From assembly GCA_963839815.1 (NCBI GenBank), contig CAWIWF010000005.1, forward strand, positions 30,045-94,044: 64,000 bases of DNA, read 5' to 3'. The notes under the pieces are model-generated. The model saw only the letters and a list, made by a program, of their open reading frames with translations. It was not told the DNA's origin and made no database searches. Position 1 is the stretch's first letter. The number at the start of each line of letters is the position of its first letter. Source of the DNA: an uncultured Thermoleophilia bacterium. Lineage in GTDB: Bacteria; Actinomycetota; Thermoleophilia; Gaiellales; Gaiellaceae. Below are positions 8,851 to 63,410 of this stretch, in pieces. The position numbers and the translations under genes are program-made.

Positions 8851-10113
8851 TCAGTCCAGCAGGCGCTCGAAGCGCTCGGCGTCGTCGAACGGGCCGATCA
8901 GCGCCAGCCGCAGGCCGCGGTTCTCGATCACCTCGGTCGCGACGCGCTGGATGTCCTCGGCGGTGACCGCGTCGAGCCCGGCGAGCACGTCCTCGGGCTC
9001 GGCGGCACGACCCTCGAGCACCTCCCGCCGCAACCCGAACATGATCGTCCCGTGCGGGCTTTCGATCTGCAGCACGAAGCGCCCCTTGGCGAAGTTGCGC
9101 GCCTTCTCGAGCTCCTGGGCCGGCACGGGCTCCCCCGCCATGCGCCGCAGCTCGTTCACGATCGTGCCGACGGCGTCGTCGATGCGGTTGATGTCGACGC
9201 CGGCCTGCGCGTACAGCGAGCCCGCGTCGGTGTACCCGTGGCTGGTGGCAAAGACGTAGTAGCCGAGGCCGCGCCGCTCGCGCACCTCGGTGAAGAGGCG
9301 TGAGGACATCCCGCCGCCGAGCACCGTCGCAAGCAGCATGAGCACGTAGCGGTCGGGGTGGGTGAGCGGGTAGCTGGGGGCGCCGAGGATCAGGTGCGCC
9401 TGGTCCGAGTCCTTCGAGTGCACCCTGACGCTGCCGTTCCGATGCGAGCTGACAGGCGCGGGCGCCGCGTCGGCGTCCGTGTCCTGCAGGTCGCCGAGCA
9501 GTTCGCCGAGCCGGTCTGTCAGGCCCTCGCCGATCCGCCCGCCGAGCCCGACCACGATGCGCGACGGCTGGTACCAGCGACCCAGGTAGTCCGTGAAGGT
9601 GTCGCGCGTGGCGGCGCGCACGGTCTCCTTGCGGCCGATGATGTCCCAGCCGAGCGGCTGGTCGCCGTAGAGCAGCGACTCGTAGACGCCGCCGATGTAG
9701 TCCCGCGGGGTGTCGAAGTACATGTTCATCTCCTCGACGATGACGCCCTTCTCGCGGTCGATCTCCTCGGCGTCGAACTTCGAGTTGCGGATCATGTCCA
9801 CGAGCACGTCGAGCGCCACGTCGCGGTGATCGGCGGCGCACTTGACGTAGTACCCCGTGTACTCCTTGCTCGTGAAGGCATTGAACTCGCCGCCGATCGA
9901 GTCGATCTCGCCGGCGATGTGACGGGCGGTCGGGCGCCGCTCGGTGCCCTTGAAGAACATGTGCTCCGCGAAGTGTGCGATCCCGCTCGAGTCCTTCGTC
10001 TCGTAGCGCGACCCCGCGGCGAACATGAGGAAGCAGGACACCGACTGCGCGTGCGGCATGGGCGCCGTCAGCACGCGGATGCCGTTCGGCAGGGTCTGGC
10101 GCTCGAAGGTCAC
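8851..10113 (-). CDS. M16 (pitrilysin/insulinase) family zinc peptidase
   Basis: 420 aa. The inverted zinc motif HxxEH is present in GIAHFAEHMFFKGTERR. The layout is typical of M16. Confidence 0.9.
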   Translation of the reverse strand: MTFERQTLPNGIRVLTAPMPHAQSVSCFLMFAAGSRYETKDSSGIAHFAEHMFFKGTERRPTARHIAGEIDSIGGEFNAFTSKEYTGYYVKCAADHRDVALDVLVDMIRNSKFDAEEIDREKGVIVEEMNMYFDTPRDYIGGVYESLLYGDQPLGWDIIGRKETVRAATRDTFTDYLGRWYQPSRIVVGLGGRIGEGLTDRLGELLGDLQDTDADAAPAPVSSHRNGSVRVHSKDSDQAHLILGAPSYPLTHPDRYVLMLLATVLGGGMSSRLFTEVRERRGLGYYVFATSHGYTDAGSLYAQAGVDINRIDDAVGTIVNELRRMAGEPVPAQELEKARNFAKGRFVLQIESPHGTIMFGLRREVLEGRAAEPEDVLAGLDAVTAEDIQRVATEVIENRGLRLALIGPFDDAERFERLLD

Positions 10114-20481: not shown

Positions 20482-21910
20482 ATGCGCGCCTCGATCGTGA
20501 ACCCGGCCACGCGGAAGTGGTGGACGCTCGCCGCCGTCGCCCTCGGCCTCTTCATGATCATGCTCGACAACACGGTCGTGAACGTCGCGCTGCCGTCGAT
20601 CCAGCGCGACCTCGGCGTCGGGCCTGTCGGAGCTCGAGTGGATCGTCACGGGCTACGCCCTGACGTTCGCCGCTTTCATGCTCAGCGGCGGCAAGCTCGC
20701 CGATCACTATGGCCGGCGGCTGGTCTTCGTGATCGGCATCGGGGTCTTCACGCTCGCCTCACTGGCGTGCGGCCTCGCCGCGAGCGGCGAGGTGCTCATC
20801 GCGGCCCGGCTGCTCCAGGGCGTCGGAGCCGCGCTGATGAACCCGGCGACGCTCTCGATCGTCTCGGCCACCTTCCCGCCGCGCCAGCGCGGTACTGCGA
20901 TCGGGATCTGGGCGGGCGTGTCGGCGCTCGCGCTCGCGATCGGCCCGCTGGTCGGCGGTCTGATCACCCAACACATCTCCTGGCACTGGATCTTCTTCAT
21001 CAACGTTCCGGTCGGGGCGCTCGCCATCGTCGCCAGCTTCCTGCTCATCGACGAGTCCCGTGACACCCGCACCGACCAGCGGCTCGACCTGCCCGGGCTG
21101 ATCACCTCCGGGGTCGGCCTCTTCGCGCTCACCTACGGGCTGATCGAGGCGAACACCTACGGCTGGACGTCGGGGCGGATCCTCGGCGCCTTCGTCGTCG
21201 CCGTCGTGGGGCTCTCGCTCTTCCTCGTGATCGAGGGGCGCGGCCGCACCCCGATGCTCGATCTCTCGCTCTTTCGCAACGGCACGTACGCCGGCGCCAA
21301 CCTGGTCACGCTCCTGGCCGCGCTCGCCATGTTCGGCGTCTTCTTCTTCGTCTCGCTCTACATGCAGAACGTGCTCGGCTACTCCGCCGTCCAGACCGGC
21401 GCTGCCTTCCTGCCGATGACGGTGCTGATCATCCTGATCGCGCCTGTCGCAGGGCGCACGACCGATCGCATCGGGTCGCGCTGGCTGATGACCGTGGGGC
21501 TCGTGCTGGTGGGCGTGCAGCTCCTGTACTTCTCGCGGCTCGACGAGACGGCGTCCTACTGGAACCTGCTCGTCGCCTTCCTGATCGGCGGCACGGGCAT
21601 GGCGCTGACGATGACGCCGAGTGCTGCCGCGGCGATGCGTGCAGTCCCCGTCGACCGCGCCGGCGTCGGCTCGGCCGTCCTGAACTCGTCCCGCCAGGTG
21701 GGCGGCTCGCTCGGAATCGCGCTGATGGGCGCAATCGTCGCCCACGGGATCGGCGGCCGGACGACGCCGCAGGCGTTCGTGGACGGGTTCTCGGACGCGC
21801 TGCTCGTCGGGGCGTTCATCGCCTTCCTCGGCGCGGCCGTGGCGATGGTGACGGTGCGGCACCACGTGCTCGACGAGCACCCCGTGCCCGTTCCCGAGCC
21901 GGTCGCATGA
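20482..21910 (+). pseudogene. MFS drug:H+ antiporter (DHA2/EmrB-like), apparent frameshift near 20619-20626 (or sequencing error)
   Basis: MRASIVNPATRKWWTLAAVALGLFMIMLDNTVVNVALPSIQRDLGV is in frame 1. It continues as LSELEWIVTGYALTFAAFMLSGGKLADHYGRR in the frame of ORF 20678..21910. Confidence 0.85.
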
Positions 21911-22506
21911 CGGTGCGCACGCGCCTGCCGGCAGGGGAGCGGCGGGCCCTCGTGCTCGATTGCGCGCTCCGGGCGTTCGCCCGCGGCACCTACCGTGGCA
22001 CCACCACCGCGGAGATCGCGCGCGCTGCCGGGGTCACGGAGCCGGTGCTGTACCGCCACTTCCCGTCAAAGCGCGCCCTCTACATCGCCTGCATGGACGA
22101 GGCCTGGGAGCACACGCAGCGGCGCTGGGAGGAGGCGATCGAGGCCGAGCCCGACCCTGCCGAGTGGCTGCCGGCCATGGGTCGCGCCACGTACGGCACC
22201 GAGCAGCATGCTCTCGTCGCCAACGTCTGGCTGCAGGCTCTGGGTGAGGCCAGCGAGGATCGGGAGATCCGGCGCGCGTTGCGCCGTCGCGTCCGCTCGG
22301 TCCACGGCTTCGTCGCCGAGACAGTGCGCCGGGCGCAGGAGCTCGGAGCCCTCCGGCCGGAGCTCGACCCGCACGCCGAGGCCTGGCTCGCCATCGCCAC
22401 GGGCCTGCTCGGCGCGCTCGGCGTGCGCATCGGCGGGCTGATCGACGACGCAGACGTCGAAGCGGTCCGGGCCGCTCGCAGCGCCTGGCTGCAGGGGAGG
22501 ACGTAG
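21907..22506 (+). CDS. TetR family transcriptional regulator
   Basis: 199 aa with HTH GTTTAEIARAAGVTEPVLYRHFPSKRALY. There is an ATGA overlap with the MFS gene. Confidence 0.9.
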   Translation: MTVRTRLPAGERRALVLDCALRAFARGTYRGTTTAEIARAAGVTEPVLYRHFPSKRALYIACMDEAWEHTQRRWEEAIEAEPDPAEWLPAMGRATYGTEQHALVANVWLQALGEASEDREIRRALRRRVRSVHGFVAETVRRAQELGALRPELDPHAEAWLAIATGLLGALGVRIGGLIDDADVEAVRAARSAWLQGRT

Positions 22507-22513
22507 ACGCGCA

Positions 22514-22537
22514 CCGGGGGCCCTCTCAGGCCCCCGG
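22514..22537. terminator. bidirectional GC hairpin between convergent TetR gene and small-peptide ORF
   Basis: CCGGGGGCC-ctctca-GGCCCCCGG, a perfect 9-bp stem. Confidence 0.6.
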
Positions 22538-22586
22538 CTCCGTCTCGGGTGTCGGCGGCCGCTGCGAGGCGGAGCCGAGTGTGACG

Positions 22587-22709
22587 CTAGCTGGACTGCG
22601 AGATGCGGTGCATGTCGTGGCCGTCATGCATGCCGGCGGCCGCGAACGTCGGGAACACCGCGGTCACGAGCGTCACGAGGACGAACGCGAGTGCGAGGCG
22701 AATCTTCAT
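22587..22709 (-). CDS. 40-aa secreted-peptide-like ORF (candidate signalling propeptide or metal-binding peptide)
   Basis: ATG at 22709 has a GGAGG 7 nt upstream. The product is MKIRLALAFVLVTLVTAVFPTFAAAGMHDGHDMHRISQSS, with a signal-peptide-like N-terminus and a hydrophilic His/Met/Asp tail. It starts 17 nt after the stop of the HTH-TPR regulator, on the same strand, and is followed by a hairpin. Confidence 0.6.
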   Translation of the reverse strand: MKIRLALAFVLVTLVTAVFPTFAAAGMHDGHDMHRISQSS

Positions 22710-22726
22710 GGGCGCACCTCCTTTCG

Positions 22727-24097
22727 CTAGAACCGGACGTCCTGGAGCACTTCTGCCGCGCGCCGGTAGAGCAGCGCAGCCGCCCGGTCCTCCCCCCTGC
22801 GACTCGCGAGGTCGCCTTGAGCGACCCACACAGACGCCCTGTGGCTCGGTGACTCCGACTGCTCTGCCACTGCGTCTGCGCGTGTGAACCACTCCTCTGC
22901 GTCGTCGAGTCGACCCTGTTCCATGAGCGCGCGTCCCAGCACCTGCTGCGAACCCGCGATCTCAGTGGCGTAGTCGGCACGGCCGCCGAGGAACTTGAGT
23001 GCCTCGCGCGCGAGCCGCTCGGCATCGGCGTGCTCGCCGCGATCGAGATGGACGCGCGCGAGCGACCCCGCCGCCGTCGCCGCGTCCGTGTCCGTGTCGT
23101 GCTCGAGCGCCACCGAGAACGCTGCCTTGAGGTTCTCGACCGCGGCGTCGGAGTGGCCCAGCATGTGGTTGAGCCCGCCCAGGTTGTTGAGCAGGCGGCC
23201 GACGTGGATCTCGTCGTCGAGCTGCTCGTACAGGGCGCGGGCACGCTCCGCGTACGTCCGCGCGCGAACCAGCTGGCCCAGCCGCTCGGCGACGAGCGAC
23301 GCCTGGAAGTACGTGTTCGCGACACTGCGGCGGTCGTCGATCCCCCGCGAGAGCTCGAGCGCACGCTCGACGTCCTCACGGGCGGCCTCCAGGTCGCGCT
23401 GGCGCCGGTAGCAGCGCGAGCGCCAGCCCAGGATCTCGGAGCGAAGGTGGTCGGCGGGCAGCTCCGAGCGCTCGGCGAGCGCGAGCGCCTCGCTCAGCAG
23501 CGCGAGCGCCGTCGAGACGCTCTGCAGCTTGTACCGGCAGACGCCCAGCCGGAAGAGCACGTCCGCACGATCCAGGTCGGAGAACCCCGGCCCCTCGACG
23601 ATCGCGCGAGCCCTGCTCAGCAGGTCGAGGGCGCCGCGGACGTCACCCGCCAGATTGCGGGCCCACGCCTCGCCCGCTAGAGCGCGCGCCTCGAGCTCGA
23701 CCGAGCCGGTGATCCGCACCAGCCGGCCGACCGTCTCGTACTCCTCGACGGCCTCCTCGCTGCGATGCGCGCGCGTCAGCGCCTCCGCGCGGGCGAGCGT
23801 CGCCTCCACACGCCCGCGGTCGTCGGACGAGACGCCGCTCGCGAGATACCCGGGATCGACGTTCAGACGGGAGGCGAGCCACTCGATCGTCTCCGCCGTC
23901 GGGCGAGTCTTCCCGCGCTCGATCTGGCTGACGTACTCCTTCGAGAAGCGCTGACCGGCGACCTCGCTCTGGGTCAGCCCGGCCGCGACCCGCAACTGCC
24001 GGAGGCGATCGCCGAGGCGATGGCCGGGACGAGAGGAGCCTGTCTGGAGTGCGTGCGGCATGGGGAGCGTCGTAGCGAAGTGTGGCCGACACTTCAC
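22727..24097 (-). CDS. XRE-family HTH + TPR-repeat transcriptional regulator
   Basis: N-terminal HTH LRQLRVAAGLTQSEVAGQRFSKEYVSQIERGKTRPTAETIEWLASRLNV, followed by ~350 aa of repeated helical TPR-like pairs. The start is GTG 24097 or ATG 24061. Confidence 0.85.
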   Translation of the reverse strand: MKCRPHFATTLPMPHALQTGSSRPGHRLGDRLRQLRVAAGLTQSEVAGQRFSKEYVSQIERGKTRPTAETIEWLASRLNVDPGYLASGVSSDDRGRVEATLARAEALTRAHRSEEAVEEYETVGRLVRITGSVELEARALAGEAWARNLAGDVRGALDLLSRARAIVEGPGFSDLDRADVLFRLGVCRYKLQSVSTALALLSEALALAERSELPADHLRSEILGWRSRCYRRQRDLEAAREDVERALELSRGIDDRRSVANTYFQASLVAERLGQLVRARTYAERARALYEQLDDEIHVGRLLNNLGGLNHMLGHSDAAVENLKAAFSVALEHDTDTDAATAAGSLARVHLDRGEHADAERLAREALKFLGGRADYATEIAGSQQVLGRALMEQGRLDDAEEWFTRADAVAEQSESPSHRASVWVAQGDLASRRGEDRAAALLYRRAAEVLQDVRF

Positions 24098-24197
24098 CAG
24101 GAAGCAACCCGTCCGAAAAGGACACTCCCCAAAGGGGCAGGTTCAAGGGGCCTAATGAGTGAAGTAACCGCCAGGTTCGATCGCTTGATCGAGCTAC

Positions 24198-24226
24198 TTG
24201 ACTCTTTCGGACATGCCCGTTACAGT
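24198..24226 (+). promoter_or_regulatory. near-consensus sigma70/SigA-type promoter directed into the tandem-repeat array
   Basis: TTGACT (24198-24203), a 17-nt spacer, then TACAGT (24221-24226), located in the only AT-rich stretch of this intergenic region. Confidence 0.45.
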
Positions 24227-24337
24227 CAGGTCACCTCGCCACCCCGATCAACCGCCAGGTCAGGAGCGAGCGTTGTGTTTGCGACGGAGGGCCGAGGGCG
24301 TGGCTGGGCCGCAGAGCCAAGCCCTCGGCCCTCCGCC

Positions 24338-25170
24338 GTGCCCTGGCCGGCGGCGGCTCCCGGCCGGCGGAGCCCGGCTCCGCCGCCGCCTCGCGCCGCT
24401 GCGGGCACGTCGCTCTCCGGGCCCGTACTCGGACGTACTGTGCCCTCCGGCGCCGCACCCGCAGCGACACGCCAGGAGCACGGCGGAGCGCTCGGTGTTG
24501 GGCAGGTGGTTGGCGTGCCCTGGGCGGGCGCCTCTGCCGCCGGCAGAGCCCGGCTCCGCCGCCGCCTCGCGCCGCTGCGGGCACGTCGCTCTCCGGGCCC
24601 GTACTGGACGTACTGTGCCCTCCGGCGCCGCACCCGCAGCGACACGCCAGGGCACGGCGGAGCGCTCGCTGGAGGAGCAGGTGGTCTGGCGTGCCCTGGC
24701 CGGCGGCGGCCCTGCCGCCGTCTCGCCGCTACGGGCACGATCCTCTCCGGGCCCGTACCCCGACGTACTGTGCCCTCCGGGCTCGCACCCTAGCGACGAG
24801 CCAGCAACGAGGTGCGCCCTGCGCCGCGGTGTTTGTCGCTGTCCCCTCCGGCCTCCTGCTCTCAGCGACACGCCAGGACACGGCGGAGCGCTCGCTGGAG
24901 CGGCAGGTGGTTGGCGTGCCCTCGGCGGCGGCTCCCGCCGGGCGGAGCCCGGCTCCGCCGCCGCCTCGCGCCGCTGCGGAGCCCGGCTCCGCCGCCGCCG
25001 CCTCGCGCCGCTGCGGGCACGTCGCTCTCCGGGTCCGTACTGGACGTACTGTGCCCTCCGGCGCCGCACCTGCAGCGACGCGCCAGGACACGGCGGAGCG
25101 CTCGGTTGTTGGAGCAGGTAGTTGGCGTGCCCTGGGCGGGCGCCCCTACGGGCACGATCCTCTTCAGTCC
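24338..25170. repeat. non-coding tandem repeat array, 4 full units plus 1 partial unit of 176-225 bp
   Basis: The unit anchor GTGCCCT recurs at 24338, 24515, 24691, 24916 and 25127, giving spacings of 177, 176, 225 and 211. Units 1 and 2 are near-identical. Unit 3 carries a divergent insert and unit 4 carries an internal 34-35 nt duplication (GAGCCCGGCTCCGCCGCCGCCTCGCGCCGCTGCG). No reading frame is conserved between units. Confidence 0.9.

Positions 25171-63336: not shown

Positions 63337-63410
<74 letters not shown>

Follow-up and report, generated by a model that had tools for sequence, protein, structure and literature searches.

A block of three elements occupies positions 22514-24346 of a 64,000-nt stretch of contig CAWIWF010000005.1 from an uncultured Thermoleophilia bacterium, hereafter the window (72% G+C). 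The first element is a gene for a regulator composed of an XRE-type helix-turn-helix (HTH) and tetratricopeptide repeats (TPRs). The second is a small open reading frame (ORF) that follows the regulator gene on the same strand, and the third is a candidate structured small RNA (sRNA) encoded divergently upstream of both. Together they may form a chromosomal signalling module in which the regulator is the receptor of a peptide made from the small ORF. An initial annotation of the window had described an XRE-HTH and TPR regulator of 444-456 aa, a 40-codon ORF placed 17 nt past its stop codon, and a GGAGG sequence 7 nt before the ATG of that ORF. It had also called this Shine-Dalgarno sequence unusually strong, noted a basic n-region, an 18-residue hydrophobic core and an AAA site in the product, and placed a perfect 9-bp hairpin at the end of the unit. 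Each of these features is present as described. The regulator domains are recognized by Pfam (HTH_31/HTH_3 and TPR_12/TPR_2/TPR_MalT), and AAGGAGG occurs just eight times in the window when both strands are counted. The sRNA and a set of heptamer repeats, both of which belong to the module, and an inversion of the module with respect to its relatives go beyond what had been annotated. The features are collected in Table 1.

Table 1. Positions of the features of the regulator, peptide and sRNA block in the window.
Feature	Position	Strand	Remarks
Structured sRNA	24227..24346	plus	5' domain P1 and long hairpin P2, invariant loop GGGCCGCAG at 24306-24314
sRNA promoter, TTGACT-N17-TACAGT	24198..24226	plus	sole sigma-70-like match in 22300-24600
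Tandem heptamers, GTCAAGT-N6-(A)TCAAG(C), candidate operator	24183..24202		13-nt spacing
Putative regulator promoter, TTGCTT-N17-CACACT	24075..24107	minus	putative assignment from conserved blocks and heptamer search
Palindrome, GTGAAGTGT-N5-ACACTTCGC	24075-24097	minus	overlaps putative regulator promoter
Longest regulator ORF	22727-24097	minus	456 aa from GTG 24097; stop codon TAG
Regulator coding sequence	22727..24061	minus	444 aa from ATG 24061; ORF list, sequence, Pfam, upstream alignment
XRE-type HTH DNA-binding domain	23843..24019	minus	residues 27-85 of the 456-aa ORF; Pfam
TPR superhelix, putative ligand-binding domain	22733..23761	minus	Pfam, DSSP on model, Foldseek
AAGGAGG Shine-Dalgarno sequence of small ORF	22717..22723	minus	GGAGG to ATG, 7 nt
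Small ORF, putative pre-pro-peptide MKIRLALAFVLVTLVTAVFPTFAAAGMHDGHDMHRISQSS	22587..22709	minus	40 aa and stop; ATG 22709 to TAG 22587
Signal-peptide-like segment	22635..22709	minus	residues 1-25: n-region MKIR, 18-residue hydrophobic core, AAA; read from sequence
GMHDGHDMH, putative mature signal	22608..22634	minus	window's version of family motif [G/S]-Φ-Φ-D-G-x
First stem-loop of 3' untranslated region (UTR)	22552..22578	minus	directly past stop codon; RNA fold
Terminal G+C-rich hairpin	22514..22537	minus	9 perfect bp; no U-tract; kept in close clade

Relatives of the regulator number in the thousands, the best of them being 445-460 aa long and 60-89% identical. Those with a named source derive from Gaiellaceae, Thermoleophilia or Actinomycetes/Actinomycetota metagenome-assembled genomes and from soil metagenomes. 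The comparison set of 96 loci comprised 80 from metagenomes, 14 from genomes and two additional contigs. In 14/14 genome loci, the regulator stop codon is followed at 16-22 nt, within a typical range of 13-26 nt, by a small ORF that has a strong Shine-Dalgarno sequence. Over the whole set, the small ORF is found at the same position, on the same strand and with the same architecture in ~95 of the 96 loci. An automatic scan accounted for 90 of them and manual inspection for most of the others, where CTG or overlapping starts, contig ends and one frameshift were encountered. The arrangement of regulator and small ORF is conserved far beyond chance. The small ORF had been expected to be kept beside orthologous regulators, and it is, also in divergent members of the family.

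These divergent members are four representatives of clusters at 50% that score 430-510 bits against the family profile. Three of them have a complete small ORF and the fourth is cut by a contig end. The DNA available upstream of the L099 regulator amounts to only ~260 nt and is taken up by a coding gene. The peptide of L099 ends in ...GGGISDGR, that of L100 in ...GGSWFDGS (140 nt downstream) and that of L102/L103 in ...AGGFFDGH (150 nt downstream). In L101 the small ORF starts before the contig end removes the remainder, and the gene upstream has no assigned identity. The genomic contexts of L099, L100 and L102/L103 visibly differ from those of the orthologues. In a more distant relative (285 bits), the place of the small ORF is taken by a SHOCT-domain gene, which marks the edge of the family. 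From these sequence comparisons, the conserved unit is the pair of regulator and peptide and not the neighbourhood. Retention of the pair in divergent members that have lost the other neighbours is the pattern expected of directly interacting partners.

The products of the small ORF have the look of exported peptides. The 88 distinct peptides of the family have a median length of 40 aa (range 19-67). All 88 carry a Lys or Arg within the first 10 residues and reach a hydropathy of 1.6 or more over a 15-residue window, and 74/88 have a small-x-small site before the conserved motif described below. Textbook signal-peptidase sites occur in the window's clade (..P-T-[FV]-A-[AG]-A, with the cut after the final A) and in the AFDGG clade (..L-A-Q-A-K, with the cut before K). 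These features suggest that the peptide is exported. The AAGGAGG sequence also precedes the small ORF in most related loci. Within a subgroup of 16 distinct sequences, the mean pairwise differences at codon positions 1/2/3 were 0.13/0.12/0.37, and the six C-terminal codons (SWFDGH) showed synonymous differences only. The ~3-fold third-position excess and the purely synonymous variation of SWFDGH point to purifying selection on the protein, and the small ORF is therefore evidently translated.

While the initial annotation anticipated a conserved N-terminus and a variable tail, this expectation was not quite borne out. The most conserved element of the peptide, ΦΦ-D-G-x, lies in the tail. The motif [G/S]-Φ-Φ-[D/E]-G-x is found in 84/88 distinct peptides, with at least two copies in 21 of them. 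The ΦΦ pair is WF, WW, AF/MF, FF or MH, and each type is confined to its own clade of the regulator tree, D-G being the only residues of the motif that are found family-wide. Tandem motifs of two to four copies are present in two independent clades, SAFDGG and GMHDGH[GD]. The array of the SAFDGG clade reads SAFDGG-SAFDGG-SAFDGH. In the other clade, the L003 peptide reads GMHDGHG...GMHDGHG...GMHDGHG...GMQDGHG and the L005 peptide has three copies. The MHDGHDMH of the window resembles one and a half such units.

The variation of the motif bears directly on an alternative put forward with the initial annotation, according to which the MH-D-GH-D-MH tail supplies Cu/Zn ligands and the peptide is an extracytoplasmic binder of Cu, Zn or Ni under the control of the regulator. 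Tails rich in Met, His and Asp are a feature of the window's clade, and cleavage between AAA and the following G would leave an N-terminal G-M-H resembling an amino-terminal copper- and nickel-binding (ATCUN) motif. The ctaA gene is nearby, as is a Sco/TlpA-like lipoprotein gene in relatives. In most clades, however, WF, WW, FF or AF stand before D-G with at most one His (WF, WW, AF or FF in 50 and MH in 8 of the 84 motif-bearing peptides), and the SAFDGG repeats offer no metal ligand except Asp. Since Met and His are peculiar to the window's clade and give way to Trp, Phe or Ala elsewhere in most clades, the metal-binding alternative loses its basis and is very improbable.

The regulator has two possible starts. 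The ATG at 24061 is probably the true one because a conserved non-coding palindrome encloses the GTG at 24097 and a stop codon closes the equivalent frame in the relative L001. Residues 27-85 are matched by the Pfam families HTH_31 (E = 2.4e-13) and HTH_3 (E = 2.4e-10), and residues ~178-455 by TPR_12 (E = 3e-30), TPR_MalT (E = 6.5e-14) and TPR_2. Neither a signal peptide nor a transmembrane segment was seen in the regulator sequence. An AlphaFold2 model calculated from a 44-sequence alignment (predicted local distance difference test, pLDDT = 91; predicted template modelling score, pTM = 0.77) was assigned by DSSP a five-helix HTH, a linker helix and 17 TPR helices, equal to ~8 helix pairs and a capping helix.

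The model was searched against the PDB with Foldseek. Designed consensus TPRs (CTPR) and LGN/Pins ranked first; the groove of LGN/Pins holds extended peptides. The complex of RapJ and PhrC (PDB: 4gyo) ranked only 42, at TM-scores of 0.62/0.75 that are among the better pairs. In the viral structure library BFVD, AimR was absent among the 50 listed matches. A search of the family profile against PDB sequences returned generic TPRs and XRE HTH domains (DdrOC, ComR, PlcR). ComR (E ~1e-4) and PlcR (PDB: 2qfc, E = 3.7e-4) were matched through HTH residues only, and a Rap protein (PDB: 6t3h) was marginal (E = 0.0096). The similarity to RRNPP receptors that the initial annotation had proposed to look for by profile and structure was thus not borne out. 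As modelled, the regulator fold is compatible with peptide binding, and common descent with the RRNPP receptors is unsupported.

The regulator was also compared across the peptide types. Seven of its positions are fixed within each of five peptide classes and take at least three states between classes, and TPRs 5-7 contain five of the seven (285, 299, 331, 336 and 367) in their A helices. These class-specific residues give a weak hint of a specificity pocket that is confounded by phylogeny. A comparison of conservation between A and B helices was suggestive at best.

The gene order in relatives is MFS - TetR - [sRNA<] [regulator> peptide>] - thioredoxin-fold lipoprotein - AIRS-domain gene - ctaA - PAC2. 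These flanks recur in the window, with UDG/NUDIX, NAD synthase, acetyl-CoA synthetase, MFS and TetR genes on one side and ctaA, PAC2 and helicase genes on the other. Compared with L016 and L017, the window carries the sRNA-regulator-peptide block in reverse orientation between these syntenic flanks, so that the peptide operon converges on the TetR gene and the sRNA points to ctaA. The inversion suggests that sRNA, regulator and peptide move as one module. The lipoprotein and AIRS-domain genes are missing in the window, where a 0.8-kb repeat array occupies the gap. Among the relatives, the lipoprotein gene is situated 3' of the small ORF in ~50 loci, with DsbD-type genes and ctaA also nearby, and it is absent in the FFDGH and SWWDGP clades and in the divergent members. 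In L016 (9593-10489), the lipoprotein has ~298 aa, a lipobox ..AAC and a C-terminal thioredoxin fold with an invariant F-A-T-P-x-F-C-x-S-x-x-C-G-P. No Pfam family matched it, and the PDB gave only weak thioredoxin-fold matches to CycY and Sco1.

A neighbourhood of this kind lends some weight to a different role for the small ORF, that of co-transcribed cargo. Its product would be a secreted or membrane peptide serving as an envelope factor, an antimicrobial or a signal for another sensor, and the TPR domain would sense something else. The lipoprotein gene of ~50 loci, ctaA and the DsbD-type genes suggest a setting of envelope or respiratory biogenesis. The regulator has generic TPRs of the MalT/TPR_12 kind, without similarity specific to RRNPP receptors, and several clades are missing an obvious signal-peptidase site. 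Vertical inheritance would suffice for the peptide to track the regulator. On the other hand, the pair outlives all other neighbours in the divergent members, and tandem units of 6-7 residues with a D-G anchor beside a variable ΦΦ typify ligands that are released and recognized by a matching receptor. A cargo role is the main rival of peptide-receptor signalling and is judged unlikely, with a chance that is still appreciable.

The same neighbourhood bears on whether the small ORF encodes the precursor of a ribosomally synthesized and post-translationally modified peptide (RiPP), or a small hydrophobic toxin held in check by an XRE antitoxin-like repressor. Repeated core-like units are known from some precursors, XRE repressors commonly accompany toxins, and the RiPP-associated TPR protein HaaT gave a weak NCBIfam match that was limited to the TPRs (54 bits against a cutoff of 1125). 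Yet no conserved modifying enzyme, transporter or immunity gene stands beside the pair, and its neighbours vary by context. The N-terminus of the peptide resembles a Sec-type signal rather than a RiPP leader, and the conserved polar motif at the C-terminus sets the peptide apart from type I toxins. Either role would be highly unlikely.

The sRNA is a part of the block for which there was no earlier description. Across the 330 nt upstream of the regulator, conservation exceeds that of coding sequence. In most relatives the sRNA is ~185 nt long and ends in a hairpin and U-tract terminator, GCCCCCGGAGCCGCAGCCGGGGGCUUUU. The 3' end of the window sRNA is not defined, the usual terminator being replaced by the repeat array. 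This array (24337-25120, plus strand) consists of four to five imperfect G+C-rich units of ~176-210 nt between the sRNA and ctaA. Its first unit starts exactly at the end of the P2 hairpin of the sRNA, TCCGCCGTGCCCTGGCCGGCGGCGGC recurs at 24685, and the array gives rise to spurious long ORFs in both orientations.

When folded singly, nine divergent copies mostly agree on P1 (loop ..ACGCCAGG), P2 (loop GGGCCGCAG) and the terminator (loop AGCCGCAG). The exceptions are the window and L002 copies, which have no terminator, and the L094 copy, which has no P1. The fold of the window sRNA has a free energy of -63.9 kcal/mol and z = -4.5. Since RNAalifold returned only 9 pairs from the raw MAFFT alignment, the structure was taken from the single-sequence fold and tested by counting pairs in a MAFFT alignment of 45 copies that was not fitted to the structure. 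The paired cells amounted to 79%, as opposed to 31-49% when the partners were slid. Compensatory changes were present in 32 of 38 pairs, and none of 500 shuffles did as well (0/500).

A covariance model of 129 positions has a single match in the window, at 24227-24346 (73 bits, E = 1.5e-12). In each orthologous locus it identified a single significant copy on the sense strand, invariably upstream of the regulator and antisense to it; L058 gave an additional marginal match on the opposite strand (E = 0.0085). When searched by motif, the sRNA is present in 80/80 orthologous loci with sufficient upstream DNA. The covariance model detected no sRNA in L100, L101 and L102, the divergent loci that have enough upstream DNA. 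Rfam 15 gave no sRNA match at gathering thresholds over the whole window, and at E <= 1 the region and five relatives produced only miRNA matches at chance level. By these comparative data, the sRNA is real, linked to the regulator and previously undescribed, and its covarying structure supports a candidate RNA family.

Two apical loops of the sRNA share the heptamer GCCGCAG (24306-24314 in the window and the terminator loops of relatives), and the P1 loop has the related CGCCAGG. By analogy, the repeated loops recall protein-titrating sRNAs or sRNAs with several seed regions. Within the window, targets complementary to the sRNA loop occur at chance level only.

The region between the two transcription units contains the candidate control elements. 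The near-consensus sRNA promoter is kept in 81 loci and its -10 box is TATAGT in most of them. The tandem heptamers comprise a copy at 24196-24202 and a degenerate partner at 24183-24189, of which the proximal one doubles as the -35 box in the oppositely oriented sRNA promoter. Near the putative regulator promoter are an inverted GT[CG]AAGT copy (24159-24165 in the window) and another direct copy, and the palindrome at 24075-24097 is also counted among the window's copies. The strict tandem pattern is present at a constant position in 65/90 loci. In the window as a whole, GTSAAGTR was observed 7 times versus 2.0 expected, and three of the seven fall within the 110 nt of 24090-24202. The GT[CG]AAGT heptamers may therefore be binding sites of the regulator and constitute a candidate operator. 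Midway between the sRNA and regulator promoters is a small palindrome or hairpin, CCCC-TTT(T)-GGGG (24127-24137; CATGCCCCTTTTGGGGGATG in relatives), which is flanked by GGACAT/ATGTCC repeats in the window's clade. This palindrome could be a second protein-binding site.

At the other end of the operon, the 86-nt 3' region folds with -47.2 kcal/mol and z = -2.6 versus shuffled sequence. The terminal hairpin closes the operon against the convergent TetR gene (21907-22506, stop at 22506). The 3' UTR has no identity in Rfam. In six relatives (L002, L004, L006, L009, L013 and L014), the region equivalent to window positions 22505-22585 has a post-stop arm, CCGGCUCCG, that can pair with either a nearby GCGGAG or the distal CGGAGCCGG. 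The distal CGGAGCCGG overlaps the 5' arm of the terminator AGCCGGGGGCGC in close relatives. These alternative pairings suggest a resemblance to an attenuator.

An attenuator-like 3' region raises the prospect that the small ORF encodes a leader or arrest peptide of the SecM, MifM, VemP or ApcA/ApdA kind, controlling downstream RNA structure, read-through or translation of the next gene. The last motif copy is 0-2 residues from the C-terminus in 62 of the 84 motif-bearing peptides, which places it next to the stop codon in most clades, and some peptides end in Pro-stop. Conserved stem-loops come right after the stop codon, with the alternative pairing overlapping the terminator in close relatives, and the lipoprotein gene is next in ~50 loci. 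In contrast, 4-10 residues follow the motif across the window and the FFDGH clade (10 in the window peptide). The window has no downstream gene, since the TetR gene converges on the operon, and the lipoprotein gene is absent from FFDGH, SWWDGP and divergent members. The ΦΦ pair differs among clades while the ribosomal tunnel does not, and repeated units are hard to reconcile with stalling sites. With a downstream gene that is neither universal nor present in the window, and a motif that is both variable and repeated, the arrest or leader reading is improbable.

The interpretation preferred here is that the block is a chromosomal peptide-receptor signalling module, RRNPP-like in its working and with the sRNA as output, for which homology to RRNPP systems is not demonstrable. 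A rough probability of 55% is assigned to it. The regulator and the small ORF would share one transcript. The 40-aa product would be exported by Sec and its signal peptide cut after AAA, releasing outside the cell a short peptide with the G-M-H-D-G-H(D) unit. Once accumulated, the peptide would re-enter the cell and dock in the groove of the TPR superhelix of the regulator. Within the 160-bp control region between the two divergent units, binding would alter occupancy of the GT[CG]AAGT heptamers by the XRE domain. The altered occupancy would change how strongly the regulator-peptide operon and the sRNA are transcribed, the latter serving as the post-transcriptional output. Of these steps, we infer peptide export and processing, re-import, TPR binding, the heptamers as operator, the sRNA as a regulated target and the direction of regulation. 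The further proposal of an independently evolved peptide-receptor quorum sensing in the core genome of Gaiellales/Thermoleophilia, with a non-RRNPPA receptor, ΦΦ-D-G-x 'dialects' and the ~185-nt sRNA as direct output, is more tentative and falls slightly short of even odds.

Several points weigh against a signalling module. The whole analysis is computational, and the relatives are mostly metagenomic contigs. Homology of the regulator to the Rap, Rgg, NprR, PlcR, PrgX and AimR receptors was considered and rejected, as the PDB profile search and Foldseek against the PDB and BFVD gave generic TPR and XRE matches only. MalT-type TPR sensors can have small molecules as ligands. Many family peptides are without a clean AxA site and could stay anchored in the membrane, and a scan of ten flanking ORFs (8.9-32 kb) turned up no oligopeptide permease (Opp). 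The heptamer adjacent to the sRNA is simply a good -35 box, which leaves the operator a candidate. The module is single-copy, vertically inherited and syntenic, and shared descent by itself would therefore make peptide classes coincide with regulator clades. Of the RRNPP system named in the initial annotation, the layout of receptor and propeptide remains and the homology of the receptor does not. Since the regulator is without RRNPP-specific homology, the system is to be regarded as an RRNPP analogue and not as a demonstrated family member.

Three other features of the window are recorded for completeness. The MFS transporter gene upstream of TetR (20482-21910, plus strand) is split: frame 1 encodes residues 1-44 and runs to 20613, and frame 2 takes over at 20627 for the remainder. 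The split reflects either a pseudogene or an assembly error. A gene for an M16-family (insulinase-like) peptidase is located at 8851-10113 (minus strand), ~12 kb from the cassette. A tRNA gene at 63337-63410 (minus strand) is the sole Rfam match above the gathering threshold in the window.

Re-imported peptides and cytoplasmic TPR receptors are regarded as a hallmark of Bacillota. Signalling in Actinomycetota is attributed to small molecules such as butyrolactones. If the signalling interpretation is true, the module would be the first peptide-receptor system of RRNPP-like type outside Bacillota, and a strategy of peptide signalling would have arisen or persisted in a second phylum on a different TPR scaffold. 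The peptides GMHDGHD, SWFDGH, SWWDGP and SAFDGG are unmodified and easily synthesised, and both the candidate operator and the candidate sRNA output are placed to the nucleotide. The module could serve as a handle on the social behaviour of Gaiellales/Thermoleophilia, an abundant and almost uncultured soil lineage. With its strong covariation, the sRNA is a candidate for a new RNA family in its own right.

RRNPP(A) systems have been described as systems of Bacillota (PMC10075063, PMC11343458). In the large-scale RRNPP_detector paper, Actinomycetota are said to signal typically with small molecules made by enzymes (PMC10075063), and a structural phylogeny of RRNPPA never mentions Actinobacteria/Actinomycetota (PMC12700828). 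A full-text literature search found no RRNPP-type system in Actinomycetota, in keeping with the novelty claimed for actinobacteria by the initial annotation. Of the features that define RRNPP(A) systems, the TPR receptor, the XRE HTH and the adjacent propeptide gene are found in the window, and receptor homology and a Bacillota host are not.

Among the closest systems in function and layout are PlcR-PapR and NprR-NprX from the Bacillus cereus group. As in the window, a cytoplasmic XRE-HTH and TPR regulator is followed on the same strand by a propeptide gene of ~40-48 codons that has a Sec-type signal and carries the active unit in its C-terminal part, the signal and the active unit being putative in the window. 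The repeat domains have no detectable homology to each other, those of the window being canonical TPR_12/MalT-type repeats and more numerous. The window module also differs from PlcR and NprR in belonging to Actinomycetota, in being single-copy, syntenic and part of the core genome, and in having a D-G anchor and a divergent sRNA.

The AimR-AimP-AimX system of SPbeta-like phages likewise places an ORF of ~40 codons after an HTH and TPR receptor, with a signal peptide that is putative in the window. Arbitrium peptides vary as a conserved anchor beside variable specificity positions, and the mature C-terminal hexapeptide of AimP (xxxxGG/GA) may be compared in this respect to the ΦΦDGx of the window family. 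AimX is a small non-coding RNA that adjoins the receptor gene and is the regulated output. The window sRNA differs from AimX in being divergent and upstream rather than downstream, highly structured and with invariant loops. In contrast to the phage-borne AimR system, the window module is chromosomal.

In Rap-Phr systems of Bacillus and phages, a TPR receptor recognizes a peptide of 5-6 residues derived from an exported propeptide, and the same is proposed for the window. The Rap proteins are without an HTH and act on response regulators, whereas the window regulator has an HTH. Pheromone units can be tandemly duplicated within one Phr propeptide (PMC11343458). The tandem motifs of the SAFDGG and GMHDGH[GD] clades recall these duplicated pheromones, and in this respect the motif behaves like a signal unit.

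The streptococcal ComR-ComS system also has a peptide gene directly downstream of an XRE and TPR regulator. The type II ComS pheromones (XIP) have a C-terminal mature peptide with a double-aromatic WW, which is comparable to the SWWDGP of the window family. ComS has no Sec signal and is exported by PptAB, while the peptides of the window family have a Sec-type signal-like N-terminus. The monitoring substrates SecM, MifM and VemP and the actinobacterial ApcA/ApdA share with the window a small ORF with an N-terminal export signal (putative in the window), a conserved C-terminal motif and structured RNA downstream. They differ from the window family in that the latter has no downstream Sec or YidC gene, its motif varies and repeats, and the regulator is always upstream. 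From these comparisons, the module of the window shares the logic of the RRNPP systems, differs from them in scaffold and phylum, and adds a structured sRNA.

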